Shown: positions 11,292 through 62,468 of the stretch, piece by piece | How the letters are laid out: each line of letters opens with the position of its first letter | Numbering within the stretch: the stretch's first letter is position 1 | Source: Vulcanimicrobiota bacterium | Lineage (GTDB): Bacteria; Vulcanimicrobiota; JAJTBE01 | Length of the DNA stretch: 64,000 nucleotides | Direction: 5' to 3' | Assembly (NCBI GenBank): GCA_021107945.1 | Contig: JAIORV010000162.1 | Span: 7,999-71,998 of the forward strand | Notes under the pieces: generated by a model | What the model was told of the DNA's origin: nothing | Database searches by the model: none | The model's input: the letters and a program-made list of their open reading frames with translations, nothing else | Made by a program: the position numbers and the translations under genes

Positions 11292-11558
11292 TTATTCAAT
11301 GCAGAGGACGCAGAGAACGCGAAGGTTTTATATGATTTTCATATTATTTACCACAGAGTTCACAGAGGGCATATAGGTTAGAAGGAATCTATTTTATGAA
11401 TGCCACAAAATCCTCATCTTTGGCATCATAAAAGACCTTGATTTTATATTCAAATAGATTTCTAAATGTTGTACCTCCTGAGTATTGCAAGGAATTCTCC
11501 AATACTATAAGCTTTTTCTATAAAACATTGGTTCCTTTTTCATCAGATGATATCTACT

Positions 11559-11671
11559 CCGGGGCTGACTAAAAAGTTGTAATAGTCATCCTGAACTCGT
11601 TTCAGGATCTAATATTCAAACCGTTTGTCAGATCCCGAAACAAGTTCGGGATGACTTATCGAACAGCCCCG
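11559..11671. other. Nested double-palindrome structure in a convergent intergenic region (candidate bidirectional terminator, structured RNA or operator pair)
   Basis: Outer stem CCGGGGCTG / CAGCCCCG. Two inner 8-5-8 palindromes, ATCCTGAA-ctcgt-TTCAGGAT and ATCCCGAA-acaag-TTCGGGAT, are flanked by GTCAT / ATGAC. Confidence 0.4.
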
Positions 11672-11777: not shown

Positions 11778-14576
11778 TCACCTTGCCCCGTGCTTGCGGA
11801 GAAGGTTAACGATGTTGGTATTGCCATATTTTGCTGAATATTTCAGAGGCGTCATACCGTATTTGTCCTTCGCATTTACATCTGCGCCTTTGGATATAAG
11901 TAATTTGGCAGTTTCGGTTTTACCTTCAATTGCCGCCCAGTGCATAGGTGTCCATCCACGATTACTCTTTGCATTTATATCTGCGCCATTGGATATGAGG
12001 AGTTTGGCAGTGTCGGTTTTACCTTCAATTGCCGCCGTGTGCAGGGGTGTCAGTTCATAATTGTCCTTCGCATTTATATCTGCGCCCATGAATATAAGTA
12101 ATTTGGCAGTTTCGGTTTTACCTTCAATTGCCGCATGGTGCAAGGGTGTTCTACCATGTGAATCCTTCACTTTTATATTTGCTCTTTTTAGAAACAAAAA
12201 AGAAGCGAATATGACTGTTATCAATATAATAAAAGATAATGCCAGCAGACCCCAAGGGGACCTCTTACTACTCACCTTTTTGTCTAAATTTGTTCCCCCA
12301 AGAAGATTGACGATGTCGGCATAGCCCCCGGATTTTGCAAATTGTAGGGGCGTCTTTCCTGAATTATCCTTCGAGTCTATATCCGCTCCTTTAGATATTA
12401 AAAATCTGGCAGTGTCGGTTTTACCTTCAATTGCCGCCGTGTGCAGGGGTGTCAGTTCATAATTGTCCTTCGCATTTATATCTGCGCCCATGAATATAAG
12501 TAATTTGGCAGTTTCGGTTTTACCTTCAATTGCCGCATGGTGCAAGGGTGTTCTACCATGTGAATCCTTCACTTTTATATTTGCTCTTTTTAGAAACAAA
12601 AAAGAAGCGAATATGACTGTTATCAATATAATAAAAGATAATGCCAGCAGACCCCAAGGGGACCTCTTACTACTCACCTTTTTGTCTAAATTTGTTCCCC
12701 CAAGAAGATTGACGATGTCGGCATAGCCCCCGGATTTTGCAAATTGTAGGGGCGTCTTTCCTGAATTATCCTTCGAGTCTATATCCGCTCCTTTAGATAT
12801 TAAAAATCTGGCAGTGTCTGTTTTACCTTCTATTGCCGCTCGGTGCAGGGGTGTCCCGCCGTCATTGTCCTTCTCATTTATATTTGCGCCTTTTGATATG
12901 AGGAGCTTTGCGGTGTCGGTTTCACCATTCCTTGCCGCTTGGTGCAGGGATGTCCATCCGCTATTGTCCTTCTCATTAACATTCGCGCCCTTGGATATAA
13001 GGAGCTTGGTAATGTCGGTATTACCTTCTATCGCCGCACAGTACAGGGGTGTCTCATCGTTATTGTTCTTTGTATTCATATTTGCGCCTTTGGATATAAG
13101 GAGCTTGGCAGTGTCGGTTTTACCATAAAATGCCGCCTTATGCAGGGGTGTCTGGCCATAATTGTCCTTCGCATTTACATTTGCGCCATTCCCTATCAGG
13201 AATCTGGTGGTGAAGATTTTACCTTCAATTGCCGCATTGTGCAAGGATGTCCAACCCTTATTATCCTTCGCATTTACATCCGCCCCCTTGAATACTAAAA
13301 GACTGACTATCCTGAAGGCATCGGAATAGCACGACCCTGCTGCAATATGAAGAGGTGGCACGCCGTAATCGTCCTTCGCATTTACATCCGCGCCCTGGTT
13401 GATATGTTCCTTGACTTTTGCCATATTACCATACTTCACCGCCTTAAAAAAATCATTATATCTACCAAATGGTTTCTTAGGAAAATGTGAGGGAGATTGG
13501 GGAGCAGGAACATGGGCATGGGCAGGAGCAGGAACAGATGTATGTGTAAGCGTAGGCGTAGGTGTAGGTGTAGGTGCAGGATACCTCACGCCACTTGTCG
13601 GGTAGCCTGAGGCAACAGCCCCAGGTGGTTTTGAAATATGAGTGGGTGCAGGTGTAGATACAGTTCCAGGATACCGCCCACCACCTCCATCAAGTATCTC
13701 AATGATCATATCAATCGAACCGGGACGGTTGACGCTGGATATATCCACCATGGACATGATGAGATCGTCAAGAAATTCGGGAACATTATTATTTAAATTT
13801 CTCACCGATTCGAATGTAAAAAGAGGACGGGACGGGTCTTCGGGATTGAGACCGGTAAGGAGATAGTGAATCAGAACCCCCAGGGAAAAAATATCGTTCA
13901 GCGGGGAATCATTGCCACGGTACTGGTCAGGAGAAGCATAGCCCTGCGTTCCCAACATCGTGCCTTTTTGCAGGGGCTTCAATATCTTGGCAATTCCAAA
14001 ATCAATAAGATAGAGCTTACTGTCTTTTATCATTGTATTTGAAGGCTTCAGATCACGGTAAATAACAGGGGGATTCTGAGAATGCAGGTAAGAGAATATG
14101 TCGAGGATTTGCCGGAAATATCCCATAACCTCGTCAAGGGGAAGCGGTGGAATGTTCTGCCTCAGATAGCATTCCAGATCCATGCCTTCGATGAATGTCA
14201 TCACAAGGTAATGTGATGTTTTTCCGCCGGAATCTTTTTTGGTGAAATAATCCGTTACCTTGGGAAGTCCTCCGTGATGGAGCTTCGCCAGCAGTTTTGC
14301 TTCTCTCAGGAACATCTCCTGAAATTTCTTCCCATCTGCATCCAGGTTATAGGTCGCCTGCATTTTTTTAACGGCTACGGTCTCTCCCAGGCGTGTGTCA
14401 ACGGCTCGATAGATACAACCCATGTTCCCTGACTTTAACATGCTTTCCACCTGATATCTGTCGTCCAGAAGCTCAACTTTCCGGGTGGCTGACGGCGACA
14501 TATTCGCCCCGCATTCGTTGCAATACTTCGCTGATGATTTTTGTTTTTTTCCGCAGACAGGGCAGAAACGATCCAT
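11778..14576 (-). CDS. Zinc-ribbon / Ser-Thr protein kinase / ankyrin-repeat protein, paralog A (two TM helices from an internal duplication)
   Basis: N-terminal CPVCGKK...YCNECG zinc ribbon. Kinase motifs VAVKKM, YRDLKPSN, DFGIAK and GYASPDQ. PTPTPT linker, then about 17 ANK repeats (TPLHxAAxxGxxDxxKLLIxxGADVNAKD). A TM helix WGLLALSFIILITVIFASFLFL occurs twice. An ATG at 14576 matches the paralog starts (MDRFC); the track start at 14591 is a TTG. Confidence 0.85.
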   Translation of the reverse strand: MDRFCPVCGKKQKSSAKYCNECGANMSPSATRKVELLDDRYQVESMLKSGNMGCIYRAVDTRLGETVAVKKMQATYNLDADGKKFQEMFLREAKLLAKLHHGGLPKVTDYFTKKDSGGKTSHYLVMTFIEGMDLECYLRQNIPPLPLDEVMGYFRQILDIFSYLHSQNPPVIYRDLKPSNTMIKDSKLYLIDFGIAKILKPLQKGTMLGTQGYASPDQYRGNDSPLNDIFSLGVLIHYLLTGLNPEDPSRPLFTFESVRNLNNNVPEFLDDLIMSMVDISSVNRPGSIDMIIEILDGGGGRYPGTVSTPAPTHISKPPGAVASGYPTSGVRYPAPTPTPTPTLTHTSVPAPAHAHVPAPQSPSHFPKKPFGRYNDFFKAVKYGNMAKVKEHINQGADVNAKDDYGVPPLHIAAGSCYSDAFRIVSLLVFKGADVNAKDNKGWTSLHNAAIEGKIFTTRFLIGNGANVNAKDNYGQTPLHKAAFYGKTDTAKLLISKGANMNTKNNNDETPLYCAAIEGNTDITKLLISKGANVNEKDNSGWTSLHQAARNGETDTAKLLISKGANINEKDNDGGTPLHRAAIEGKTDTARFLISKGADIDSKDNSGKTPLQFAKSGGYADIVNLLGGTNLDKKVSSKRSPWGLLALSFIILITVIFASFLFLKRANIKVKDSHGRTPLHHAAIEGKTETAKLLIFMGADINAKDNYELTPLHTAAIEGKTDTARFLISKGADIDSKDNSGKTPLQFAKSGGYADIVNLLGGTNLDKKVSSKRSPWGLLALSFIILITVIFASFLFLKRANIKVKDSHGRTPLHHAAIEGKTETAKLLIFMGADINAKDNYELTPLHTAAIEGKTDTAKLLISNGADINAKSNRGWTPMHWAAIEGKTETAKLLISKGADVNAKDKYGMTPLKYSAKYGNTNIVNLLRKHGAR
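12035..12838. repeat. Perfect 402-bp direct tandem duplication inside kinase paralog A
   Basis: Plus-strand track ORFs 12061-12324 and 12463-12726 have identical translations. The minus-strand protein repeats a 134-aa block (ANK, TM helix, 2 ANK) twice without any change. Confidence 0.85.
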
Positions 14577-14652
14577 TAAGTGTTCCCCCAAAAGAAAATT
14601 ATGGTACTATTCGGACATCTCTTGTAGTAAAAAACTATTCAATCCCGATTTC
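14577..14652 (-). promoter_or_regulatory. Conserved about 80-bp leader/promoter block shared by the three kinase paralogs (copy A)
   Basis: CCAAAAGAAAATTATGGTACTATTCGGACATCTCTTGTAGTAAAAAACTATTCAATCCCGATTTCAT aligns with 18168-18250 and 20716-20800. On the coding strand it contains TTGAATAG and CATAAT boxes and a GGGGGA RBS. Confidence 0.45.
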
Positions 14653-20800: not shown

Positions 20801-20918
20801 GGACCGGCCAAAAGACCGGTCTGGAATTAAATCTCGGTGTGGTTGGAATGATTATCCTTTTTTTCAAACTCTGCGTCCTCCGCATCCTCTGCGGTGAATA
20901 CTCAAAGTCATCAAAAAA

Positions 20919-22247
20919 CTATATCTTCAACACCCTCGTCTTGAACTTCGCCAATTTTATCCACTGGACAATGGGGATTCTTGCCGGGCACACGTATGTA
21001 CAGCATCCACATTCCATGCAATCCATAAGGTTATATTCATATTTCGCTTCGGACCATCTCTCAGCTTTTGCCAGTTTTGCAAGCACCTGGGGCATGAGCT
21101 TTTGAGGGCAATGTTTTATGCAGAAGCTGCATCTTATGCAGTTCTCAGGCTCATAAAGCTTCGCCTTTTCTTTAGAGAGAATCAGGATACCCGATGTTCC
21201 CTTGATTACGGGTGTGTCGAGGGTATATTGGGCGATACCCATCATCGGTCCGCCGGATATTACCTTTACAGGCTCTTTTGTCAGACCTCCCGCCGCCTCG
21301 ACAAGGGTTTTGAATGGCGTACCGACGCGAACCTGGAAATTGCCCGGCTCCGCCACACAATCTCCGGTGATGGTAACAATCCTCTCATACAACGGCTTTC
21401 CCTTGACAACGGCTTCATAGACAGCATACGATGTACTCACATTTTGTACCACTGCTCCCACATCGACGGGAAGCCCGCCTGACGGAACCTCTCTGCCCGT
21501 GATGGCGTAAATAAGCTGTTTCTCCGATCCCTGCGGATACCTTGTCTTCATAACCTGAAGCTTCATCGGAGAATGACTGCTCTCGGTTTTCTCAAGCTCT
21601 TTTTCTATGGAGCTTATCGCCAGATGTTTGTTGTCCTCGACAGCTATTATAACTTCCGTCGCTGCTGTGGCGCGTTTTAATATCCTGACACCCTCGAGCA
21701 TCTCTGCGGTTTTTTCGCGCATAAGCCTGTCATCGCTTGTGAGAAAAGGCTCACATTCCGCACCGTTAATGATGAGAACATCCACCTTTTTCCCTTTCGG
21801 CGGAGATATTTTGACATGGGTCGGGAAGGCCGCGCCTCCCATGCCCACGACTCCAGCTTCCTTGACAAGGGCTACAATGTCGGCGGGTTTCATATCATGC
21901 CACCGGCGGTTTGCGGGTTTGCATTCAAGCATATCAACGCCGGAACCCTGGATAACAATTGCCTTGGATTCTCCGAACACCGGATGTGGTCTGTTCTCTA
22001 TTGCCTTGACCGCGCCGGTGATGGACGAATGAACCACGGCGGTAATGAATGATTCCGCCTGGGCAATTTTCTGTCCCGTTCTTACCTCGTCTTTTACTTT
22101 AACAAGGGGAGTCGCCGGGGCTCCAAGATGTTGTGAGACAGGAATTACAACTTCTTTTGGCGCATCGAGCACCTGTATAAGTTCAGTCTCGGTTAATTCT
22201 TTGTTTCCGGCAGGATGGATTCCTCCGGGAAATACAATTGTACTCAT
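20919..22247 (-). CDS. RnfC-like electron-transport subunit (SLBB NADH-binding domain plus two 4Fe-4S ferredoxin motifs), with no other Rnf subunits nearby
   Basis: N-terminal GGIHPAGNKELTE, GGAAFPTHVK, and clusters CIRCSFCIKHCP and CMECGCCTYVCP. Confidence 0.7.
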   Translation of the reverse strand: MSTIVFPGGIHPAGNKELTETELIQVLDAPKEVVIPVSQHLGAPATPLVKVKDEVRTGQKIAQAESFITAVVHSSITGAVKAIENRPHPVFGESKAIVIQGSGVDMLECKPANRRWHDMKPADIVALVKEAGVVGMGGAAFPTHVKISPPKGKKVDVLIINGAECEPFLTSDDRLMREKTAEMLEGVRILKRATAATEVIIAVEDNKHLAISSIEKELEKTESSHSPMKLQVMKTRYPQGSEKQLIYAITGREVPSGGLPVDVGAVVQNVSTSYAVYEAVVKGKPLYERIVTITGDCVAEPGNFQVRVGTPFKTLVEAAGGLTKEPVKVISGGPMMGIAQYTLDTPVIKGTSGILILSKEKAKLYEPENCIRCSFCIKHCPQKLMPQVLAKLAKAERWSEAKYEYNLMDCMECGCCTYVCPARIPIVQWIKLAKFKTRVLKI

Positions 22248-34040: not shown

Positions 34041-36034
34041 CCGCACTTGGAATAGCCACAGTGTTGGCATACGGAGCATGCTCCCACGAGAATCGTGCCC
34101 TGACCGCATTCATGACATACTATTTCTTTAACTTCAGTCATCATGGGTATATCGAGGGTCTCACCTTCATCGTCCGTCCCGGTATTCCCATTTTCAACAT
34201 CTGTTTTTACACAGACAGACTTTGTTGCCTCATCCGACTCAATATCATCATCCTGCCCGGAGGTCGAATCTCCCATGACTATTACCTGTCCCTCTCTGCT
34301 TCCGTCCCTATAGACGGTAATTCCCTTGAGGTTGTTTCTATGGGCCATCATGTAGATATGACCAACATCTTCTTTTGTAGCGTTCGCGGGTAGGTTTATT
34401 GTCTTTGATACACTCATATCAACATGCTTTTGAAATGACGCCTGGATTAGGACATGCCTTTCCCCGGCAATATCATGCGACGTTACAAACAACTTTCTTA
34501 TATGTTCCGGTATTTCATCAAAATTTTGTATAGTCCCGGTTCTTGCAAGTTTAATCACTAGGTCTTTCGAATAAAACCCTTCTTTTTTTGCCATCTCTTC
34601 AAAGGTGGGGTGAATCTGTAAAAGCTTTTTGTCTCCAAGAACATTTCTCTCGAAGCATACACCGAAAAGAGGCTCAATACCCGGGGAGCACCCTGCAATT
34701 ATCGAGAGAGTGCCTGTGGGAGCGATACTTGTGATTGTTGCATTCCTTATGGTTGTAGCAGGGAAGAAGGTGGATTTTCCCCAGTTCGGGAAGCAACCCC
34801 TCTCTTTTGCCAATTCATTTGAAGCTTTTCTGCCCTCTTTCGAAATAAATTCCATTACCCTGTCCGCTATTTTGAGGGCAAATTCATCTTTATATGAGAT
34901 TCCCAGGAGTATAAGCATGTCGGCAAATCCCATAATCCCGAGACCAATTTTACGGTTCCCTCTGGTTTTTTGCTTTATTTTCGGGATTTGCGGTACATAT
35001 TCATTGACATCAATGACGTTATCAAGGAAACGCACGGCGAGCTTTACTGTTTGAGCGAGATGAGCGTAATCAATTGAACGGTTCTTTACAAATCTGCTGA
35101 GATTTATGGACCCCAGGTTGCAGGCCTCGAAAGGCAGAAGGCAAGCTTCGCCGCATGGATTTGTTGATTCAATCCTCCCCAGCTTTGGTGTCGGATTGTC
35201 AGAGTTTATCCTGTCAAGAAACAGTATGCCGGGCTCTGCATTCTTCCAGGCATTGGTTACTATTTTATCCCAGACGGTGCTGGCTTTGAGAGAGTCTGAT
35301 TTCTTTCCTGAGCGGGGATTGTAAAGATCATAATCGGAATTGTTTTTCAGGGCGTCCATAAACTCGTCGGTAATTGCCACTGATATGTTGAAATTATAGA
35401 AATCTCCCTCCGAGAGCTTGGCATCGATAAAATCCAATATATCCGGGTGATCAATTCGCAATACCCCCATATTTGCTCCCCTGCGGCGACCTCCCTGTTT
35501 CACGGTTTCTGTTGCCTGGTTGAAGACCCTCATAAATGAAATGGGACCGCTCGATACGCCGTTTGTGGTCCTGACGCGATCACCTGCGGGACGTAACCTT
35601 GAAAAGCTATATCCCACACCTCCACCGCTTTTTTGTATGAGAGCCGCTTGTTTTACAGCATCGAATATCTCGGGCATCGAGTCCCCCACAGGTAAAACAA
35701 AGCAGGCGGAAAGTTGACCCTCATCTCTTCCGGCATTCATCAGGGTGGGAGAATTGGGGAGAAAGACCAGGTTGACCATCATATCATAAAACTTCTGGGC
35801 ATATTCTTCCATTTTATTACGATCTCCATATTGGAGCTCCGCAATTGAAACGGTGCTTGCCACCCGGTGGAACATCTCCCGGGGGGTTTCAACCACTTCA
35901 TTTTTGAGATTCTTTTTTAAATACCTTGCCCGAAGTACTGTTATGGCATTGTCCGTAAGCTCGGGTTCTTTATTCGACTTTATCGGATTAATTTCATCAA
36001 ATAAGAGGGGTAATTCCAAATCGTAACTTCCCAT
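34037..36034 (-). CDS. nrdJ: Adenosylcobalamin-dependent ribonucleoside-diphosphate/triphosphate reductase (class II) with a C-terminal zinc ribbon
   Basis: TNPCGEACLLPFEACNLGSINLSRF active-site loop and conserved class II blocks. C-terminal CHECG...CSVCQHCG. An ATG at 36034 has an AGGAGA RBS; the track start at 36046 is a TTG. Confidence 0.88.
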   Translation of the reverse strand: MGSYDLELPLLFDEINPIKSNKEPELTDNAITVLRARYLKKNLKNEVVETPREMFHRVASTVSIAELQYGDRNKMEEYAQKFYDMMVNLVFLPNSPTLMNAGRDEGQLSACFVLPVGDSMPEIFDAVKQAALIQKSGGGVGYSFSRLRPAGDRVRTTNGVSSGPISFMRVFNQATETVKQGGRRRGANMGVLRIDHPDILDFIDAKLSEGDFYNFNISVAITDEFMDALKNNSDYDLYNPRSGKKSDSLKASTVWDKIVTNAWKNAEPGILFLDRINSDNPTPKLGRIESTNPCGEACLLPFEACNLGSINLSRFVKNRSIDYAHLAQTVKLAVRFLDNVIDVNEYVPQIPKIKQKTRGNRKIGLGIMGFADMLILLGISYKDEFALKIADRVMEFISKEGRKASNELAKERGCFPNWGKSTFFPATTIRNATITSIAPTGTLSIIAGCSPGIEPLFGVCFERNVLGDKKLLQIHPTFEEMAKKEGFYSKDLVIKLARTGTIQNFDEIPEHIRKLFVTSHDIAGERHVLIQASFQKHVDMSVSKTINLPANATKEDVGHIYMMAHRNNLKGITVYRDGSREGQVIVMGDSTSGQDDDIESDEATKSVCVKTDVENGNTGTDDEGETLDIPMMTEVKEIVCHECGQGTILVGACSVCQHCGYSKCG

Positions 36035-36257
36035 GGCTTGAATCAATTCTCCTTTTTATATCTATTTATATCTATTTGTAGCAAAGACCACAGAGCCCCC
36101 ATTTTATTCACATTCTTTGCGTTAAAACCAACCCTTATTCATCCTCCGGGCTCCGATTCCACTGCAGATCGTAAAGAATACAGGTTGTTGAGTTGGTCCG
36201 ACATCTAAACCCGGGGCGAGGGATCTTATATAATTTCCATTCTCTATATATAATTTC

Positions 36258-37577
36258 CTACCTTGAGTTTGAAGCTTTTTTGTCCTGAATCCATCGAACC
36301 CTCTCTATCTCTATCAATAATTCATTTGAAATTTTTTCATGACCATAGACGGTCGGATGCATATCATCTAAAAATAGTGGATCCGCCGGTAAATCATGCC
36401 ACTTTCGAAGGAGATCCAGGAATATCCCGCCTTTTTCCTCCGTGACTTCCTTCATTATCTTTCTGTATTGATATAACTCAGTATCTTCTTCTTCAATGAG
36501 AATATCTTTGTTATCATCGACAATGTCATTCTCTGAATCCTCAAATTCTTCCGCTTTCCTGGGCATTGATATCACCAGGATTTTCATACCCCTGTCGTTT
36601 GCAATATCCATTATCGAATTGAGATTCTCCCTGAAATCCACGGCGCTAACCCTGTGAACTCCGCGGTCTTCGGGAACCGACTCGTAAAGATGTGGTTTCT
36701 TCCTGTATTTCGCATTCAGGATCTCCCTGCGAAGGCACATATATATATTGCTTCTATAGAATAATCTCAATAATGGCTGGATGTATCCCTGCGATGCCCT
36801 GTTTTTATCCTCGTCCCAGTCGAAGTCAGGATCGTTGTTGTGAGATATTATTATTGCATCCGGGTCGAATCCGACTCCCTTCCCGCGAAAAAAAATCAGC
36901 GTGGAAAACGTTGTGTAACCGGGAACAGCGGCATTTATTACCTCGATTTTTCTTTCCCTGTATTTCCTGCCGAGCTTTTCCCCCAGAACATTTGCAAAAA
37001 CCTCGTTCTGGTTGACGCCGTATCCGAATGCCGACGAGTCACCAAGAATCATAATCCTGAATGTGTCGGCGGGTTTCTTTTTACTTACCTCGTCCCCTCT
37101 GAACCCATGTCCGTTGACTTTCAACTTGCAAGTAAATCCTCCCACATCAGTCGTCCCCTCATGACCCGGAAAAAGCTCCCATAAATACGCGGGGTGAGGG
37201 CGATGTAAAGGGGGATGCTTGCGGACATGCGCTCCCATAGCATATTCCATTGAGCCGACAATAAGTAAAATCCAAATAACAACATAAACCGACTTCTTCC
37301 ATCCCCTCCATCTGAATGCAAAAAGAGAATCAGTAAGCAAGTAAACAAACACCGCAATAAGAAGTACAATCAATCCCACTTTTTCAGTACCCCTGGGGGG
37401 GTAATTTACATTCTCGGAATAATACGGGTTTACCGACGGAGCGGCTCTTTGGGGAGCGATTCCCGACCCGATTATGAGGATAATAACAACAGCGGCCAAA
37501 ATACCGAATATTATTGCAAATATAAGGTATGGACGGGATATGGATCTATTATCTTTTTTTATTTCCTGATTTTTCAT
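36258..37577 (-). CDS. Membrane-anchored SGNH/GDSL hydrolase family protein
   Basis: N-terminal TM helices, then MILGDSSAFGYG (GDS block) and DMHP near the C-terminus. The track start at 37607 (a GTG) lies inside a repeat element, so the ATG at 37577 is preferred. Confidence 0.65.
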   Translation of the reverse strand: MKNQEIKKDNRSISRPYLIFAIIFGILAAVVIILIIGSGIAPQRAAPSVNPYYSENVNYPPRGTEKVGLIVLLIAVFVYLLTDSLFAFRWRGWKKSVYVVIWILLIVGSMEYAMGAHVRKHPPLHRPHPAYLWELFPGHEGTTDVGGFTCKLKVNGHGFRGDEVSKKKPADTFRIMILGDSSAFGYGVNQNEVFANVLGEKLGRKYRERKIEVINAAVPGYTTFSTLIFFRGKGVGFDPDAIIISHNNDPDFDWDEDKNRASQGYIQPLLRLFYRSNIYMCLRREILNAKYRKKPHLYESVPEDRGVHRVSAVDFRENLNSIMDIANDRGMKILVISMPRKAEEFEDSENDIVDDNKDILIEEEDTELYQYRKIMKEVTEEKGGIFLDLLRKWHDLPADPLFLDDMHPTVYGHEKISNELLIEIERVRWIQDKKASNSR

Positions 37578-37591
37578 TGATTTGTATTTAT

Positions 37592-37680
37592 TCACCGCAA
37601 AGACCACAAAGAATTTTTGTAGGAGGGGTTTCCTAACCCCGATAAACCCTTTGCGTCCTTTGCTTCTTTGCGGTTAATTT
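37592..37680. repeat. Composite hairpin element: triple-heptamer arms CCGCAAAG-ACCACAAAG / CTTTGCGTC-CTTTGCTTC-TTTGCGG around an internal REP-like core
   Basis: The arms are reverse complements of each other. The core TGTAGGAGGGGTTTCCTAACCCCGATAAA belongs to the same family as the 10941 and 33942 elements. Confidence 0.7.
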
Positions 37681-37763
37681 TAATCATCCAAATATTTACC
37701 CACATAATATAGAGAAGAGCTGAATAAATTCTCTGCGGACTCCGCGATCTCCGCGGTTAATAA

Positions 37764-39080
37764 TTACCCCGAATAAAACCCCAGCGCAGCTATCGTGACA
37801 TTTGAAAATCCCATTGGATCCACACACTGGCGATACTCGAGCAGTCTGCCGTAATCGGCATCCATACATTTCATCATTGTATAGAGAGGTGAAAGTCCGC
37901 ATACCCGCCTTTTCTCCTGGTCTTTTATCACATCGGCGAAGAAACCGTCGGCGTCCATTTTTTCTACAAGTCCAATGCTTTTAAGCTCATCTTCTTCCAA
38001 AGACTTCATCTGTGTCAGGGTGGGAGCTATGAGATCGCCGAATGCAAGCCCGACATGGGCAAAATCAATTCCTGAAATAAACGCAGGCTTATATCCGCCG
38101 GACTTGATTGTCTTTTTCATGGCAGATATAAATTCCCTCACCTTTGGCTCATCCATGGGATTTATACCTTTTATACCGAAATCGTCGAATGAATGAACAA
38201 GAACCGGCACTATCCTTATGTCCCTGTCAGGGAATATGTATTTCAACATAACTGCCTGGAACTCGATTGAATGCTCGGTTCTGTGGAGATATTCGTCCTG
38301 GTGATAGTCGGTTTTGCAGTAGCTTGTTAATTTGTCAATGAAGTCCTTGTCTGTTGGAATGTCACCCAATGGAGTCTTGAATGTCTTTTTTGTAAGTGCA
38401 ATCAGGTTGTCAGCGGAATGATGGGATGTTCCAAATATGATAAAAAGATTGGCGTCCGATTTTTTTAACTCCCTGTATGCAAACCCGTATGTTCTGTTGC
38501 CCCGTTGGAAGTCGATATGGGGCGCGGCAATCCCGACAGGAATATCGTCAGGGTGTTCATCTTCCGGGAGGTCAATAAAAAAATCGCTCAATTCTTCTCG
38601 AAGCTCTTCAGGATTGTCCGAGTACCCTTTTCCCGCAAGAGATGCTTCTCTGTAATCCTGCTTCCCAAACTCATCATTTAAAAATTCCATGTATTTGCGG
38701 TATCTGTCATTTTCAAGGAGCAGGGCGGCATCGAGCTCGGCCATGATAGACCTGATTTTATCGGAGAATATGAGTCTTCCGAATTTGCGGTTATATTCCA
38801 CCTGGATTTCAGAAGTTTTATGCTTGCCGTCAAATCGTGATATTATAAAGAAAACATCGGGCGGAACCATTAGCATCTTATCCGTGAGTGAGGCCGGATC
38901 CCTTATCAGGATCATGTCCATATTCTGGAAATTTATAGGAACAGCTTCAATATGCCTTATGAGGGGATATTCCTCCTCATGTTTAAGAGTTCTTTTTTCA
39001 ATATCGGGATCTTTCAAATCGATATCTCCTTCAAAAGGGAAATGGGATGATTTCTTACACCACGAAGCCACGGAGTTCAC
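37764..39080 (-). CDS. MEMO1-family (AmmeMemoRadiSam system protein B-like) protein with a roughly 160-aa N-terminal extension
   Basis: IAAPHIDFQRGNRTYGFAY and IIFGTSHH match the MEMO1 H-x-D and GPSHH blocks. The annotated start overlaps a hairpin repeat, so the true start is uncertain. Confidence 0.55.
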   Translation of the reverse strand: MNSVASWCKKSSHFPFEGDIDLKDPDIEKRTLKHEEEYPLIRHIEAVPINFQNMDMILIRDPASLTDKMLMVPPDVFFIISRFDGKHKTSEIQVEYNRKFGRLIFSDKIRSIMAELDAALLLENDRYRKYMEFLNDEFGKQDYREASLAGKGYSDNPEELREELSDFFIDLPEDEHPDDIPVGIAAPHIDFQRGNRTYGFAYRELKKSDANLFIIFGTSHHSADNLIALTKKTFKTPLGDIPTDKDFIDKLTSYCKTDYHQDEYLHRTEHSIEFQAVMLKYIFPDRDIRIVPVLVHSFDDFGIKGINPMDEPKVREFISAMKKTIKSGGYKPAFISGIDFAHVGLAFGDLIAPTLTQMKSLEEDELKSIGLVEKMDADGFFADVIKDQEKRRVCGLSPLYTMMKCMDADYGRLLEYRQCVDPMGFSNVTIAALGFYSG

Positions 39081-39140
39081 GAAGGAAATATCCAGTTTAT
39101 TATATTAAAAACTCCGTGTTCTCCGTGACTTCGTGGTAAA
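39043..39140. repeat. Composite hairpin element: CCACGAAG-CCACGGAG-TTCACGAAGG ... AT-rich loop ... CTCCGTG-TTCTCCGTG-ACTTCGTGG-TAA
   Basis: 26-nt imperfect inverted arms built from three heptamer units. Same architecture as 37592-37680 and 62395-62468. Confidence 0.7.
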
Positions 39141-39184
39141 TTCAAACCTGACTCATACCACTTCCAATCTTCATCTTCCATTTT

Positions 39185-39922
39185 CTACCCGGGTACATAT
39201 CTCGCTTTCATATCGGGTTGATTCCCGTTGTGATTTACTTTGCTCTGCTCCATTATGGAAAAGAAATCAGCGTCATAAAACAGGCTGTCGCCATGTGCGG
39301 AGAAAAGCATATGTATTTTATAATTCAGGTTCCTGACAATTTCAATCGTACGGTTTATTGACTTGATTTTATCCCGGGGATCTACGAGATCATTACAATC
39401 ACTAAGATCTCCCAGATACCAGTCCCCTGTTATTATCGCGCCCTTGAAGACAATCAGCAGGTCGCTATAGGAATGTTTGGGAGCATGAATGAGATAGACA
39501 GGCTCCCCGCCAATATCACCGGTAAAAAGCTCCCCGGAAAAAACCGTATCAAAAAACCTGTGTCCTCCCATAACCCAATTTTTGCCCCTGGCGCTTCGTA
39601 GGTTTCTAACGATGTAATAACTGAAAAACGGATCAGATAAGAATGACTCATGAGTCACAAATTTTGCCTGGGGAAAGGTTTCCCTGAATTTTGGCAGAGT
39701 GAAAGAGTGATCCCAGTGGGAATGACTGAGAAAACCGTATTTTGGGAACAGCCTGTTCTTATTGAGATACATCTTTGCTTTTTCATACGGCGGTTTTTCA
39801 TTTTTCCTGAACGGCGGCATCTCAACTATTGCCGCCTCCCCGTTGTTTTCGAGAATCCAGCAGGCGTTTTTCAAATGCCCGTATCTTTTTAATATAGTAA
39901 AACCCTGGGCCGGTTTATTCAT
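39185..39922 (-). CDS. MBL-fold metallo-hydrolase
   Basis: SHSHWDHS (HxHxDH) motif, and downstream His/Asp ligands (HAPKHSYSD, SAHGD). The start was taken as MNKPAQ, which leaves an 8-bp overlap with the upstream gene. Confidence 0.75.
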   Translation of the reverse strand: MNKPAQGFTILKRYGHLKNACWILENNGEAAIVEMPPFRKNEKPPYEKAKMYLNKNRLFPKYGFLSHSHWDHSFTLPKFRETFPQAKFVTHESFLSDPFFSYYIVRNLRSARGKNWVMGGHRFFDTVFSGELFTGDIGGEPVYLIHAPKHSYSDLLIVFKGAIITGDWYLGDLSDCNDLVDPRDKIKSINRTIEIVRNLNYKIHMLFSAHGDSLFYDADFFSIMEQSKVNHNGNQPDMKARYVPG

Positions 39923-40670
39923 ATTTTTTTCTCTCCAATCCCGCCGTGCGGGAAAATGTGAATACATGTATTTTTGCCACTCCCGCCTCAGACAGTGCCC
40001 TGGAGCACTCCGACACGGTGGCGCCGGTTGTTATTATATCATCGACAAGCAGGATTGTCCTGCCTTTAATCTCATCTGACCGCTCTACCTTGAAAGCTTT
40101 TTTCACATTCTCCCATCTCTGTTTCGAATTAAGCTTGTGCTGGGGTTCGATTTTTCTTGTATGGGACAGGCATTCAAGTACGGGGATTTCCGATGCTTGG
40201 GAAACAGCTTGAGCTAAAAGTTGTGAGGTGGAGTTATTTACTTTTGCATACGATTGCCTGTGAGATGGAACCGGTATAATATATTTTGCCGGAAAGAGGA
40301 ATTCGTTCTCCCTGAAATATTCACATGCCCCTTTGAAAATGGCGGGAAATAAATCAATCTTGTTTTTAAATTTCAGTAAAGCCAAGGCCTCTTTCAATTT
40401 TCCATTATAATAAAAAGGGGACCGACAAAGAATATATCGGGGCTTATTAAGAATACAATCCTGGCAGATTTCCATTCCGGAATCTCTTAACGGATTCCCG
40501 CAAATTTTGCAAAGAGGTGGAAATATGGGATTAAATTCATTCAGGCATTTTCGGCAGATAGGTTCGCCGGTTTCGCTATCACATAGTCGGCAATGATTAG
40601 GAAAAATTAGTTCAAGAAGGTTGTCGAACAATCCCACCACGGTTATCTCTTTTTTCCTCTTTCCTGCCAT
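39915..40670 (-). CDS. comF: ComF-family protein (phosphoribosyltransferase domain with N-terminal zinc finger)
   Basis: CRLCDSETGEPICRKC zinc finger. PRTase motif ILLVDDIITTGATVSE. Confidence 0.75.
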   Translation of the reverse strand: MAGKRKKEITVVGLFDNLLELIFPNHCRLCDSETGEPICRKCLNEFNPIFPPLCKICGNPLRDSGMEICQDCILNKPRYILCRSPFYYNGKLKEALALLKFKNKIDLFPAIFKGACEYFRENEFLFPAKYIIPVPSHRQSYAKVNNSTSQLLAQAVSQASEIPVLECLSHTRKIEPQHKLNSKQRWENVKKAFKVERSDEIKGRTILLVDDIITTGATVSECSRALSEAGVAKIHVFTFSRTAGLERKKYE

Positions 40671-41305
40671 TTCGCTCTGAATGTTATCAGAAAAGACATG
40701 AGAATAAGCTTCAGGTCAAGGAAAAGATTGTATTTTTTAACATAAAGCAGGTCATATTTCAACTTGTTTTTCGGAGGTGTATTGTACCTGCCATAAACCT
40801 GGGCAAGTCCTGTAAGACCCGGGCGAACGATATGACGACTGTGGTAATGGGGAATCCTGTCTGCATAGTCGGAATCCACCAGCACCACTCGCTGTGGGCG
40901 CGGTCCTACAAAGCTCATATCACCCGCTAATATGTTTATAAGCTGTGGAAGCTCGTCCATGGCAGTCTTGCGAAGGAACCATCCCACCCTGGTGATCCTA
41001 TTGTCTTTTTGGCTTGCAAGGATCGGACCTGAGTCCTTTTCCGCATTGTGAACCATAGAGCGGAATTTCCATTGCCTGAAGGTCCTGCCTTTTTTCGAAT
41101 AACATATTTTGTGAAAGAAAATGGGTCCCCCTGATTCCAGTTTGATCAGGATTGAAATAATAACCCACATCGGAGCGGATATTATTAGTCCGAAAAGAGC
41201 AAGGAAAACATCAATAACTCTCTTTAGATAATCATAGATTCCTGTTATCCTGCGTGACTTGAAGGGAATATCATAACTCCCCGCCTGCAGTCTGTAAATC
41301 GTCAT
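40643..41305 (-). CDS. Polyprenyl-phosphate sugar phosphotransferase (bacterial sugar transferase, WbaP/CpsE C-terminal domain type)
   Basis: [18 protein letters not shown] ... SGGPIFF ... [34 protein letters not shown]. Confidence 0.8.
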   Translation of the reverse strand: [220 protein letters not shown]

Positions 41306-41489
41306 ATTAAAGGTACCGCCATATCAGAATGGTATTTTTATATATTTGACACATATTATACAGAAAAGTTCCTGTTTATGCAAATTAATTTCCGGATATT
41401 TATTCATCGCAAAGACCACAAAGATTTTAATCTTACCACGAAGCCAAGAAGGACACGAAGAAATGTATGGGACTCCATTCTTTGTTCTC

Positions 41490-42395
41490 CTATTCCACTT
41501 TCTCCGGTTTCGAAATCATATCGAAGTCAAGGAGAATATCTTCAAGCATTCCACCGAGAACAAGCTTTTTATAGTCGGGAGATCCTCTTAGAGAAGACGC
41601 TCTTGGGTACAAATTTCCTTTAATCCATACTTTTGCAAGCTCAAGAACCTCGCCGTTTATTTCCTTATAAGACAGGATTGTTGTCAATTCCGCCGGGCAA
41701 ATCGGTGTTCTTGCAACCGCCGACAGGGCGACTCTCACCTTTCTTGAGACGACCTCGTCAGGATTCAGAACAAGAACCGATAGAGCACATGTTGCCAGAT
41801 CCTGTCCTTTCACCCTGCTAGCTCTCCTGTATGCCGATTTTGTACCCGCCGGGAATAGCGGAAAAATGATTGATGTGAGTATCTCCCCTTCTTTCAAGTC
41901 AGTCTTTCCGGGTCCCAACAGGAATTTCTCAACCGGTATTGTCCTGTAACCGCCGGTTCCGAATATCTTTACCTCTGCATCATATATAAGGCTCGGGCTT
42001 CCTCCCTCAGCTCCCGGCGCTCCGTTGGCAAGGTTTCCACCAAGAGTAGCCCTGTTTCGTATGTCATAGCAGCCGAATGATGATGAAGCCTGTATCAGTG
42101 CTGGAAAATGCTTCTTGATCCGCTCATTCTCATTAATTTGTGTCCATGTCGCGGTTGCGCCTATTGAAAGGCCTTCCTCATCCCATGTTATCTCATCCAG
42201 TCCCGGGATCCCCTTGATATCAACCACTTTTTTCGGGCGGATTCTACCCCCTCTTATTTTCACAAAAAGATCCGTTCCCCCGGCAAGTACCCGGGAGTTT
42301 TTGTCCTCAAGCAGGATTTTTACCGCCGACTCAAGTGATTCAGGTTTAATATAGTCAAAATCAGTCATAATAATATTTATCCGCTCCTTTTTCAA
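41490..42395 (-). CDS. FAD-binding subunit of a xanthine dehydrogenase/CO dehydrogenase-family molybdoenzyme (CoxM/CutM-like), with no partner subunits nearby
   Basis: FDYIKPESLESAVKILLEDKNSRVLAGGTDLFVKIRGG, a FAD-binding PCMH-type domain, plus the C-terminal CO-dehydrogenase flavoprotein domain. Confidence 0.7.
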   Translation of the reverse strand: MKKERINIIMTDFDYIKPESLESAVKILLEDKNSRVLAGGTDLFVKIRGGRIRPKKVVDIKGIPGLDEITWDEEGLSIGATATWTQINENERIKKHFPALIQASSSFGCYDIRNRATLGGNLANGAPGAEGGSPSLIYDAEVKIFGTGGYRTIPVEKFLLGPGKTDLKEGEILTSIIFPLFPAGTKSAYRRASRVKGQDLATCALSVLVLNPDEVVSRKVRVALSAVARTPICPAELTTILSYKEINGEVLELAKVWIKGNLYPRASSLRGSPDYKKLVLGGMLEDILLDFDMISKPEKVE

Positions 42396-56711: not shown

Positions 56712-56762
56712 TATGGGTGTTTTACTAATTACTACAAAGAGCGCTGAGGACGCAGAGTTTTC

Positions 56763-58562
56763 ATGAAAAAAAGACTTAACATTTTTCTAATAATGATTGG
56801 AGTAGCCAGCCTCCTGTTGATTGGCAGGCTTGCTTTTTTACAATTAATTATGGGGGATCGCTATGGAAAAATTGCCCGGTTTAATATCATAAGAACCACA
56901 CTTATTACCGCTCCAAGGGGTGAGATAAGGGACCGCAAGGGCAGAGTTCTGGCCTATGACGTGCCCCGCCTGAATGTATGTGCAATTCCCTTCGAGATTG
57001 ATGATGTTGAGAAATTTGCGAAAAAACTGGCCCCCTTAATCGGATATTCGCCGGAGAGAATTGTCAAGATCATCAAAAAGCATAAAGGGAATAAGTTTCA
57101 GGAAATAGTAATCAAGTCCAAGGTGAATACCGAAGTCATGATGAGGGTGGCCGAATATCAGGGCGATATCCCCGGGCTTTACCTGGAAGTTCTCCCCGTC
57201 AGGGAGTATCCGCATGGTGAGATTGCCTCTCATATTATCGGTTATGTGGGTGAAATTACAGGCGAAGAATTAGGTAAGCCCCGATATAGCGGGAGACGCC
57301 AGGGAGATGTTGTTGGGAAAGACGGGATTGAGAAGTATTATGATCAATACCTGCAGGGAAAAATGGGAGAAGTAGAGGAAGTGGTCGATGCCTCCGGTAA
57401 AATCATCAAGGTTCTGGGAAAAACACAGCCCAGACCGGGATATAACCTCTACCTTACCCTTGATTTTGAATTACAAAAAGAGTGTGAGGAGTTATTAAAA
57501 TATTATGTAAAATCTCTCTCAAAGATTAGCGGTGAGCCACTTGCGGGATCCGTAATAATTATGAACAGTAAAACCGGTGAAATATTTGCAATGGTCAGCT
57601 ATCCCGGTTTCGATCCGAATATATTTTCAAAAGGAGTCTCGCGGAAAGATTATCAAAAACTTATCAATCGAAAAGATTATCCCCTTCTGAATAGAAGTAT
57701 TGCAGGAGCATATCCGGCGGCTTCAACATTTAAAATCGTCACAGGTTCCGCGGCACTTCAGGAAGGGATTTGCACAAGATATTCGCCTTTCTATTGTTCC
57801 GGCAGGCATAAGGTGGGGAATCTATATTTTAATTGCTTTGTAAGGGCCGGGCACGGCCCTATTAATTTTCACAAGTCGATATCGGAGTCATGCGATGTCG
57901 TCTTCTATATCCTGGGTGAATCCCTTGGAATAGACAGACTTCTTAATTATTCCCGGCAATATGGTATAGGAAGTAAAACCGATATTGATCTTCCGGGAGA
58001 AATTTCCGGTCTTTTACCTAATCATATATGGAAAATGAAAACACTCAAGGAACCTTGGTACACGGGAGACACCGTTAACCTGTCAATAGGGCAGGGTTAT
58101 CTTGGGATCACACCTTTACAAATGGCGGTAGTTGTCGGGGTGGTGGCAAATAAGGGGTTCATGTACAGGCCTTTTCTTGTAAAGAAGGTGGAAAGACATG
58201 ACAACGTTGTTTTGAAAGTTATCAATCCTGTTATTTCAAAAAGAGTAAAAATAAAACCGGGTCATTTTAATGCAATAAGAGACGGTATGAGGGAGGCGGT
58301 TCTGACAGGAACCGCAAAAAGACTCAATTCGCCGAAGATGAGATTCGCAGGCAAGACAGGCACGGCCGAGAACTTTCCCACGAAGGAAAATCCACATGGC
58401 CGAAATCATACATGGTTTGTTGGGATGGGTCCCTTTGAGGATCCGGAGATTATCCTGGTTGTATTCCTGGAAAAATCGGGCGGTCTTGCGGGAAAGAGAG
58501 CGGTTCCTCTTTCCAGGAGTATATTAAATGAGTATAGGAAGTTGAAAAATGGAAAGAATTGA
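56763..58562 (+). CDS. mrdA: Penicillin-binding protein 2 (peptidoglycan D,D-transpeptidase)
   Basis: N-terminal TM helix, dimerisation domain, then transpeptidase motifs STFK (AASTFKIV), SGR-like, and KTGTA. Confidence 0.85.
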   Translation: MKKRLNIFLIMIGVASLLLIGRLAFLQLIMGDRYGKIARFNIIRTTLITAPRGEIRDRKGRVLAYDVPRLNVCAIPFEIDDVEKFAKKLAPLIGYSPERIVKIIKKHKGNKFQEIVIKSKVNTEVMMRVAEYQGDIPGLYLEVLPVREYPHGEIASHIIGYVGEITGEELGKPRYSGRRQGDVVGKDGIEKYYDQYLQGKMGEVEEVVDASGKIIKVLGKTQPRPGYNLYLTLDFELQKECEELLKYYVKSLSKISGEPLAGSVIIMNSKTGEIFAMVSYPGFDPNIFSKGVSRKDYQKLINRKDYPLLNRSIAGAYPAASTFKIVTGSAALQEGICTRYSPFYCSGRHKVGNLYFNCFVRAGHGPINFHKSISESCDVVFYILGESLGIDRLLNYSRQYGIGSKTDIDLPGEISGLLPNHIWKMKTLKEPWYTGDTVNLSIGQGYLGITPLQMAVVVGVVANKGFMYRPFLVKKVERHDNVVLKVINPVISKRVKIKPGHFNAIRDGMREAVLTGTAKRLNSPKMRFAGKTGTAENFPTKENPHGRNHTWFVGMGPFEDPEIILVVFLEKSGGLAGKRAVPLSRSILNEYRKLKNGKN

Positions 58563-59391: not shown

Positions 59392-59665
59392 TATCCATTC
59401 ACCGCCCAAATAACAAGAGATTGGTAGGGGTGGCGTCTCGCCGCCCAAGTAACTAAAATGTCTTCTTCGTGAAGGAGAAAAGAAAGTGAAAAGTGAAAAA
59501 TGAAGCTATAACCATTGCAGGAGTTACGTGTTTTATCATTGCGAGGAGCTAACTTTAATGTTCTTTGTCTATTCAGGAGATTGCTTCACTAACACCCGCA
59601 ATGACACCTTTTGCACGATTACTTTGCGTAGGTCCTGTCATTATTTAACTTAAAGGGGACGAATT

Positions 59666-60172: not shown

Positions 60173-60245
60173 GCGGAAATAGCTCAGATGGTAGAGCATT
60201 AGCTTCCCAAGCTGAGGGTCGCGGGTTCGAATCCCGTTTTCCGCT
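60173..60245 (+). tRNA. tRNA-Gly (anticodon CCC)
   Basis: Cloverleaf GCGGAAA/TTTCCGC acceptor stem, anticodon loop TTCCCAA, T-loop TTCGAAT. Confidence 0.85.
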
Positions 60246-60271
60246 TTTTATTCTGAGTGCAGAAATAGCAG

Positions 60272-60347
60272 GGCGACGTGGCCGAGTGGCTAAGGCAGCG
60301 GTCTGCAAAACCGTTTATCACCAGTTCGAATCTGGTCGTCGCCTCCA
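60272..60347 (+). tRNA. tRNA-Cys (anticodon GCA), with CCA encoded
   Basis: Acceptor GGCGACG/CGTCGCC, anticodon stem-loop GCGGT-CTGCAAA-ACCGT, T-arm ACCAG-TTCGAAT-CTGGT, 3' TCCA. Confidence 0.8.
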
Positions 60348-60353
60348 TACTAA

Positions 60354-60427
<74 letters not shown>

Positions 60428-62321: not shown

Positions 62322-62394
62322 GCTTTCGCCAGTTGTCTTTAGTCCAACTGAATCCACAATCGCTCTCCTTTCGATTTTTTTAAACGCAGAGATC

Positions 62395-62468
62395 GCGGAG
62401 TTCGCAGAGGATAACCGGAGAAAAAACATTGATACCTCTGTGTTCTCTGTGTCCTCTGTGGTAAAAAA
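62395..62468. repeat. Composite hairpin element: CGCAGAG-ATCGCGGAG-TTCGCAGAGG ... CCTCTGTG-TTCTCTGTG-TCCTCTGTGG-TAA
   Basis: Same triple-heptamer inverted-arm architecture as 39043-39140 and 37592-37680. Confidence 0.7.

Follow-up and report, generated by a model that had tools for sequence, protein, structure and literature searches.

Tandem-heptamer arms form hairpins in intergenic spacers

The window, by which we mean the whole 64,000-nt stretch of DNA analysed here, contains no rRNA and carries a total of about 13 copies of a short sequence arm, all of them intergenic, in short spacers between co-directional protein genes, where they stand alone or form inverted or direct pairs. An arm measures ~30 nt and has the form TTNAC-[CRCRRAG]-N1-2-[CRCRRAG]-NN-[CRCRRAG], although some arms have two heptamer units. 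A two-unit pattern, CRCRRAGNNCRCRRAG, allowing at most one mismatch, matches the window 21 times vs 0.36 expected, and a profile built from 414 arms of other genomes, with none from the window, detects those of the window with E values from 1e-8 to 1e-2, eight of them at E <= 0.01. The window arms share the family pattern of TTNAC followed by two to four tandem CRCRRAG units with 1–3-nt spacers, and in three elements two such arms converge with TTNAC/GTNAA outermost. The protein records of the window's contig include MCD4785710/13/20.

The preliminary description of this DNA had proposed three full inverted-repeat copies with three heptamers in each arm. All three copies exist, with spans refined to 37592-37680, 39054-39142 and 62379-62468 (none assigned to a strand), and the three-heptamer arm needs amending for element 1, whose left arm has two units. 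Element 1 (37592-37680) is a CGCAAAG-type variant with the left arm ATTCAC-CGCAAAG-AC-CACAAAG, a loop that contains an internal mini-hairpin (GGGGTT/AACCCC), and the right arm CCCTTTGCG-TC-CTTTGCT-T-CTTTGCG-GTTAA; its weak profile score (E 0.26) is due to the AAAG variant. Element 2 (39054-39142) begins 44 nt after the Lactamase_B stop and consists of the left arm TTACAC-CACGAAG-C-CACGGAG-TT-CACGAAG (39056-39084), a 27-nt loop and the right arm CTCCGTG-TT-CTCCGTG-A-CTTCGTG-GTAA (39112-39140); a repeat finder reports the same element at 39059-39137 as 26-nt arms that are 85% complementary. Element 3 (62379-62468; profile E 1e-8 and 5e-6) follows the DUF4350 stop (62519) on the genes' own strand and has the left arm TTTAAA-CGCAGAG-AT-CGCGGAG-TT-CGCAGAG-G, a 26-nt loop and the right arm CCTCTGTG-TT-CTCTGTG-TC-CTCTGTG-GTAA. 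Loops in the window elements measure 26-45 nt.

When RNA folding was compared with 200 dinucleotide shuffles, the three elements gave -29 to -42 kcal/mol with z-scores of -4.0 to -8.4, and none of the 200 shuffles equalled them (for element 3, on the + strand), so the arms are clearly more complementary than shuffled sequence. The individual z-scores were -4.0 and -4.3 for element 1, -7.6 on the + strand and -8.4 on the - strand for element 2, and -6.3 on the + strand for element 3 (62382-62468), which on the - strand (z -1.56) folds no better than shuffles. The claim that a hairpin is always preserved is thus borne out by folding with the exception of element 3, whose arms are complementary via G.U on the + strand only, the - strand being the sense of the flanking genes. 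Given this poor sense-strand fold of element 3, pairing at the RNA level is not clearly under selection.

The remaining copies are simpler. Among the partial copies listed previously, those at 11300-11365, 36075-36110, 41399-41470 and 56735-56765 contain real arms, whereas the one at 59395-59470 is mostly lost; the first and third are directly oriented pairs and hence not hairpins. The first direct pair (11295-11371, + strand; z about -1.2, profile E 2e-4 and 1e-4) begins 4 nt past the stop of a radical-SAM gene and consists of the arms TGCAGAG-GA-CGCAGAG-AA-CGCGAAG (11295-11325) and TTTAC-CACAGAG-TT-CACAGAG-GG... (11345-11371). The second (41399-41467, + strand), detected by pattern matches and giving no fold, combines the two-unit arm TTCAT-CGCAAAG-AC-CACAAAG (41399-41425) with the arm TTAC-CACGAAG-C-CAAGAAG-GA-CACGAAG (41433-41467). 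A solo arm on the + strand, TTAC-TACAAAG-AG-CGCTGAG-GA-CGCAGAG (56729-56757; profile E 1.4e-3), is placed between a stop codon at 56711 and an ATG at 56763. The short element at 36075-36125, AGCAAAG-AC-CACAGAG ... TTCTTTGCG-TTAA, is a decayed inverted pair, unstranded and without a significant fold, and lies 40 nt upstream of the RNR start. The highly degenerate copy at 59394-59476 (unstranded; z -2.2, profile search negative) is doubtful and at best a relic, in which the outer CCATTCAC/GTGAAGG pairing (TTCAC/GTGAA) and one CTTCGTG unit are recognisable. Two solo arms on the - strand had been overlooked: ATTCAC-CGCAGAG-GA-TGCGGAG-GA-CGCAGAG (20866-20899; profile E 3.5e-6), ~20 nt past the stop of the gene at 20919-22247(-), and TTAAC-CGCGGAG-AT-CGCGGAG-TC-CGCAGAG (37730-37761; profile E 4e-6), 4 nt past the Memo stop. 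A weak match inside a gene, at 36650-36674 (E 0.18), is probably due to chance.

Start codons and Shine-Dalgarno sites lie outside the stems

Some of the hairpins had been reported to overlap annotated start codons and were proposed to act as attenuators. The apparent overlap with the starts of three ORFs is an artefact that arises because the ORF list takes the first in-frame start; the called or conserved starts and their Shine-Dalgarno sites all lie outside the stems. Memo starts at TTG 39017 after GAAGGAG, 38 nt beyond element 2, and both TTG and GAAGGAG are kept in an 84%-identical relative (L244); the GDSL ATG is at 37577, 14 nt from the end of element 1; and MoxR most plausibly starts at GTG 62357 after AAAGGAG, 24 nt outside element 3. 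An alternative MoxR ATG (62429) falls inside the hairpin loop, and translation from there would read through the arm. When mechanical ORF calling translates the arms, the proteins concerned (here MoxR, Memo and GDSL) acquire false N-terminal extensions, and for annotation the hairpins are better masked as repeats than treated as gene-specific regulators.

A cis-regulatory attenuator that sequesters the ribosome-binding site or start of the downstream gene might be suspected from the position of the hairpins 14-38 nt upstream of starts, from GGAG/GAGG strings within the purine arms, and from the solo arm at 56729-56757, which stops 5 nt before an ATG. We nevertheless consider it highly improbable, because the Shine-Dalgarno sites and start codons outside the stems are conserved independently of them, relatives at 65% identity do not have the element at the LactB-Memo spacer, the genes downstream are unrelated across phyla, the stems have no terminator-like T tract after them, and start codons are not enriched after arms, although this last control is weak. 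The elements also occur in Bacteroidota, which make little use of Shine-Dalgarno pairing. No intrinsic terminator was called on the elements in a scan of 35900-41700, and on the sense strand element 3 is followed by UUUAAAAAAA. A search of Rfam returned no relevant family, the only hits being three tRNAs at gathering score and sub-threshold miRNA-like hairpins at E >= 0.4. These observations suggest that the hairpins do not control the start codons of adjacent genes. Separately, anecdotal cases in which a purine arm provides the Shine-Dalgarno sequence were seen in phage contigs.

The arm is widespread across bacterial phyla

The elements are also found far outside the window. The exact three-unit pattern had at least 120 matches each in viral and species-representative genome collections, where we estimate a few tens of chance matches across the whole genome collection, and arms were found in at least 12 groups at phylum level, in cultured isolates as well as in viral contigs. 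Among the matches listed are Acidobacteriota, Planctomycetota (including Brocadiaceae), Verrucomicrobiota, Chloroflexota, Thermodesulfobacteriota, ‘delta’-, Beta- and Gammaproteobacteria, Cyanobacteria, Bacteroidota, Cloacimonadota, Binatia and others. Cultured carriers identified by BLAST in annotated plasmid and chromid records include Bacteroides finegoldii and ovatus, Nostoc/Anabaena/Calothrix and Pseudoalteromonas, and in Gemmatirosa kalamazoonensis arms lie at 23 places on one replicon. No arm was found in E. coli genomes, and in the plasmid and phage records checked no annotated feature lies beneath the matches. Rfam therefore lacks a ~30-nt non-coding module whose conservation reaches from Bacteroides to Acidobacteriota, cyanobacteria and contigs of phages.

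All loci used for statistics were selected for the presence of an arm or of a GxxExxY gene. The 2.07 Mb of fetched loci, every one of which has one or more arms by ascertainment, gave 549 raw arm matches (511 without tandem arrays) vs 23 in shuffles. Adjacent arms were mostly convergent (98 pairs, with 8 divergent and 60 direct), and the spacing of convergent arms was bimodal, at up to ~100 nt or at 300-600 nt. The arm consensus runs from a purine-rich lead-in through TTNAC into the units, with spacer usage in the order GA > AA > AG > GG. In many phyla the element adjoins unrelated genes. The elements are real, non-random and widespread, and they are not gene-specific regulators.

GxxExxY genes lie between convergent arms

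In B. finegoldii a gene annotated as ‘GxxExxY protein’ (PF13366 PDDEXK_3, TIGR04256) is located exactly between two convergent arms. We searched metagenome contigs with a GxxExxY alignment and obtained 80 loci, with 72 genes that had enough flanking sequence, and scored a strict three-unit arm within 140 nt, purine upstream and pyrimidine downstream. An upstream arm was present at 56/72 genes, a downstream arm at 51/72, both at 43/72 and either at 64/72, while control windows in the same loci had an upstream arm in 1/153 cases, a downstream arm in 2/153 and both in none, and shuffled flanks had none. Arm-flanked GxxExxY genes also occur in isolates of Bernardetia, Sphingomonas, where the cassette is inserted between fabD and fabG, and Treponema, where the flanks are single units; the GxxExxY gene of Gemmatirosa is followed closely on its downstream side by a complete hairpin. 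Other GxxExxY genes are associated with related units, namely CACTAAC, or CGCGGAT with 3-nt spacers, and cassettes can be nested or adjacent (L299, L278 and L285). When small ORFs flanked by arms were sought generically in arm-selected loci, those found were few and heterogeneous.

The G..E..Y motif together with D68 and E78-x-K80 is invariant in 39 diverse members of the protein family. An AlphaFold2 model (pLDDT 94.6) predicts that the ~125-aa protein adopts a minimal PD-(D/E)XK nuclease fold in which the catalytic residues are invariant, its best PDB matches being Cas4 SSO0001 and lambda-exonuclease-type PD-(D/E)XK nucleases at modest scores (E 6e-4, TM about 0.5); a PDB sequence search with GxxExxY gave no match. 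At least 7,990 clusters make up this very large family, and PDDEXK_3 is listed with ‘Unknown’ function in a survey of the superfamily (PMC3424549), so the association with heptamer arms provides a testable substrate hypothesis for it. Our literature searches, whose coverage was incomplete, found no functional study of GxxExxY or PDDEXK_3 and no publication linking it with the arms, and a search for the literal arm sequence returned only eukaryotic primers.

A search of the 64-kb window gave no GxxExxY (PF13366) ORF. Given this, and the tight association of arms with GxxExxY genes elsewhere, we assign the window copies to gene-less derivatives or solo ends of such cassettes. At a probability of roughly 70%, we interpret the hairpins, direct pairs and solo arms of the window as gene-less copies and solo ends of a dispersed family of palindromic GxxExxY cassettes, a family whose ends are inverted tandem-heptamer arrays, TTNAC-(CRCRRAG-N1-2)x2-4.

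Elements differ in presence between relatives

Three relatives of the Memo locus were compared: L244 (84% identity) and L245 and L246 (65%). In both L245 and L246 the LactB-Memo spacer measures 26 nt and has no element, and in L244 it contains the right arm only. The Memo-GDSL spacer of L244 contains one complete hairpin, and that of the window a solo arm plus a different hairpin, the solo arm (37730-37761) being orthologous to the left arm of the full L244 hairpin. The two-unit arm at 41399-41425 has an ortholog in L244; the adjoining extra arm at 41433 and the decayed element upstream of RNR are absent from it. The Memo-GDSL element of L244 and window element 3 occupy unrelated loci, yet over their full length, with the loop, they share 90.6% identity, whereas orthologous genes of the window and L244 are only 77-81% identical. 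One and the same element, loop and all, therefore occupies two loci in two related genomes, and these sequence comparisons point to mobility of the elements. Within the species no polymorphism was seen: L001-L003 are identical to the window, and two Logan contigs break at 39112 inside hairpin 2.

The cassettes themselves can be stable. The Bacteroides radA/GxxExxY/FAD-protein cassette is found at the same locus in several assemblies and samples with an identical protein, and B. finegoldii has it at the same radA locus with a protein about 90% identical, which indicates stable inheritance and not jumping. Such persistence could mean that the hairpins are useful to the host. REP elements of enterobacteria have been co-opted as processing and stability signals between cistrons, and the window hairpins might likewise punctuate operon transcripts, their persistence being selected. 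Every window copy is in a short spacer between co-directional genes, orthologous arms are kept between the window and L244 despite ~20% DNA divergence, the Bacteroides cassette and its arms are held at one locus, and the analogous stem of the 23S rRNA intervening sequence (IVS) is processed by RNase III (PMC4990558). We regard this as unlikely all the same, as relatives have no element at the same spacers, solo and direct-repeat arms are unable to form stems, element 3 is unfolded on the sense strand, neighbouring genes are unrelated across phyla, and wobble pairs in cassettes show no significant strand asymmetry (G.T 16 vs A.C 12).

The preliminary description had also raised MITEs, and this alternative is closer than the attenuator reading: inverted repeats, TTNAC...GTNAA, delimit elements that are copy-like and dispersed. 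Conventional MITEs are internally deleted copies of a DDE-type IS that its transposase moves in trans, and the small size, terminal inverted repeats, intergenic and dispersed distribution, non-coding nature, subfamilies and presence or absence between relatives would all be as expected. We consider it very unlikely, however, that these are MITEs of this kind. Among 87 arm pairs there was no consistent 2-5-nt direct repeat at offsets 0-8, with small scattered excesses over chance, and target-site duplication is lacking at any offset or length; the complementarity of the arms ends at TTNAC, position -5. No transposase family recurs near the ~500 arms in about 240 arm-containing loci, where the only recurrent neighbouring proteins are phage structural families common to related viral contigs. 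Solo arms are frequent, the arms are built of direct heptamers, and what recurs as cargo is a PD-(D/E)XK protein of 125 aa instead of a transposase. The sole nearby IS, an IS630 beside Memo in L246, was rejected as a parent because its ends are unrelated.

REPINs, inverted doublets of ~30-nt units that occur with singlets in extragenic space, resemble the window elements in these same respects, and would be moved by RAYT, an IS200/IS605-like Y1 transposase. REP units are by definition imperfectly palindromic and have a conserved head, and the RAYT gene is flanked by them. The arms here are tandem direct heptamers with neither an internal palindrome nor a GTAG head, their sequence is conserved across phyla and not species-specific, and no Y1 transposase was found near arms in the roughly 240 arm-containing loci; of all the explanations weighed, we hold this one to be the least probable.

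Each element tends to a single heptamer type

The heptamer was described earlier as differing between copies with the two arms of each copy remaining complementary, which was taken as covariation. For 87 inverted pairs, units of partner arms differed at 0.747 positions in register and at 0.753 out of register, and there is thus no position-specific compensation. What we observed is sameness across the whole element: units differed at 0.67 positions within an arm, at 1.16 between non-partner arms of the same locus and at 1.37 between different loci, and each element tends to one heptamer type throughout. Non-purine variants such as CGCTGAG, CGCCAAG and CACGGGG are present in both arms of an element.

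This uniformity is explained in part by the copying of whole elements. Units and spacer are shared by an L244 arm and the window arms at 37592, 41399 and 36075, and those at 39056, 39140 and 41433 have in common an unusual 1-nt first spacer. At an orthologous Bacteroides site the left arm has changed in two units with the right arm unchanged. Slippage or conversion inside an element probably alters how many heptamers it has and of which type.

Taken as gene-less GxxExxY cassettes, the window copies would have arisen by the copying of whole elements or of arms in a manner that leaves no target-site duplication, and in this Candidatus Eremiobacterota MAG they would behave as insertions, selfish or neutral, that are tolerated between genes. 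In a transcript in which the two arms pair they would form an interrupted stem of ~25-30 bp, which, by analogy with the Coxiella IVS, would be expected to be cut by RNase III.

A more tentative extension, which we think rather unlikely to be right, is that the GxxExxY nuclease uses the heptamer arrays both for recognition and as sites of homology, so that the cassettes would represent an undescribed nuclease-encoding class found in many phyla and phages. The cassette would cut ‘empty’ hairpins, or cruciform or hairpin DNA, and be copied in from a filled copy via its ~30-bp arms, which would make the window hairpins empty targets or relics and rRNA IVSs that bear S23p a sister branch with other heptamers. 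Were this true, it would explain the missing target-site duplications, the single heptamer type per element, the consensus of arms across phyla, and the nested and adjacent cassettes.

Relationship to other heptamer arrays and palindromic elements

Among described systems the closest is the 23S rRNA IVS of Coxiella. That of Coxiella burnetii is 428 nt long, is regarded as selfish by the authors who describe it and has an inverted-repeat stem of 28 bp; GACAGAT heptamers, three in tandem or in some strains two, lie upstream of the S23p ORF, and RNase III cuts at the first repeat (PMC4990558). The window elements resemble the IVSs of C. burnetii and Leptospira in being small and bounded by inverted repeats, with tandem heptamers in a stem of ~28 bp in the IVS, and the CACAGAT and CACGGAT variants among the arms here come near to the GACAGAT of the IVS. 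The IVS carries an ORF of ~120 aa in its loop, encoding an S23p four-helix bundle, and full-length members of the cassette family likewise carry a small ORF. Unlike the IVS, the window copies have no ORF and are located in mRNA spacers instead of within a helix of 23S rRNA, the heptamers that follow TTNAC in them are CRCRRAG units with spacers of 1-2 nt, and their full-length relatives encode GxxExxY instead of S23p. Excision by RNase III has been demonstrated for the IVS only. The window copies are best described as an IVS-like palindromic element in mRNA spacers.

Intergenic heptamer arrays have also been reported by Rehm et al. from Xanthomonas (GGGAATC) and Nostoc (GGGGAYT), with no function assigned there and with 70-75 convergent pairs, capable of forming stem-loops, per Xanthomonas genome; heptanucleotide repeats of Calothrix are cited in the same place (PMC4692102). 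They share with the window arms the intergenic tandem heptamers and a unit number that varies between close relatives (PMC4692102). The Xanthomonas and Nostoc units are described there as genus-specific, G-rich and without spacers, and are discussed as G-quadruplex formers with no link to a cargo gene noted in the passages that describe them (PMC4692102), whereas the arms studied here keep one consensus across phyla. The comparison joins the 23S rRNA IVSs and the Xanthomonas and Nostoc arrays into one architectural class.

Integron attC cassettes also have imperfect inverted repeats around single small genes and can be likened to the adjacent or nested cassettes, and a minority of ends here have the outer AAC...GTT that recalls the attC core sites, RYYYAAC...GTTRRRY. 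We rejected an attC origin because most ends are TTCAC...GTGAA and integrase context is absent; in addition, the elements are scattered among housekeeping genes and not arrayed.

The architecture extends to S23p genes outside rRNA. Using as query an approximate S23p consensus, which scored 174 bits on PF05635, we found S23p-family genes in eight viral contigs, all of them flanked by inverted arrays of other short tandem units, for example GGCAGAA, TTGGCTG and GGAAGGA. Since cargoes of unrelated fold, GxxExxY and the four-helix-bundle S23p, are found within one architecture, the cargo may be a passenger and not the mobilising enzyme.

The number of units in the arms, the roughly 30-nt repeats in which TTNAC is followed by tandem CRCRRAG heptamers with 1–2-nt spacers, differs between genomes. 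Expanded arms carry five tandem units in Candidatus Oscillochloris fontis (locus L146, 5621–5700) and at least ten in Labilibaculum euxinus (L144, 2579–2625), both following the pattern TTAAC-CGCAGAG-AA-CGCAGAG-GA-(CACAGAG-GA)n, and arm unit number is therefore unstable, as was likewise described for the heptamers of the Coxiella 23S rRNA intervening sequence (PMC4990558). Three metagenome loci with GxxExxY genes (L278, L285 and L303) show nested or clustered arrangements, for example a gene preceded by three plus-strand arms at intervals of about 95 nt and followed by three minus-strand arms, and several complete hairpins also adjoin a cassette, that is, a GxxExxY gene between arms.

At L244, the 84%-identical relative of the Memo locus, a repeat tract (6885–6965, orthologous to window ~39185–39145) begins immediately after the Lactamase_B stop with tandem heptamers that have no spacers, three of AGTCAGA and seven of TGTTGGA. 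These are followed by a small palindrome with a GTAG head, GTAGCGCGGGTTTTTAAACCCGC, at the site that the left arm of hairpin 2 (39054–39142) occupies in the window.

Effects on assembly and ORF calling

Two independent Logan assemblies of one organism, both identical to the window, have contigs ending at window position 39112, the first base of the hairpin 2 right arm; evidently this repeat breaks up short-read assemblies. The elements also affect gene calls, with ORFs over-extended into them by 24 codons for MoxR (62357–62429), 21 for Memo (39017–39080) and 10 for GDSL (37577–37607), so that mechanical calls yield peptides translated from arms, such as MFFLRLSSANSAISA. The protein collection contains a 438-aa Memo variant (P0123) equal in length to the over-extended window ORF, and it may be the same artefact.

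S23p-type cargo; further features of the window

The consensus of the S23p-type, four-helix-bundle cargo also matches PF22296 (bAvd-like) in a Pfam scan. This is the family of accessory proteins of diversity-generating retroelements, and the match hints that S23p-type cargo binds nucleic acids.

A second type of hairpin, distinct from the heptamer-arm elements and present once in the 64-kb window, lies at 11584–11656 in the same convergent spacer as a direct arm pair (11295–11371). Its two 27-nt arms are 89% complementary, each of them forming a small palindrome of its own, ATCCTGAAC-TCG-TTTCAGGAT, such that the whole resembles a REPIN-like inverted doublet of palindromic units. Near-identical palindromic strings at 12324–12351 and 12726–12753 are coding repeats of a 937-aa minus-strand protein (11778–14591) in which about 11 ankyrin repeats accompany a zinc ribbon and a Ser/Thr kinase domain. 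The sole Rfam matches in the window are a cluster of three plus-strand tRNA genes (60173–60427).
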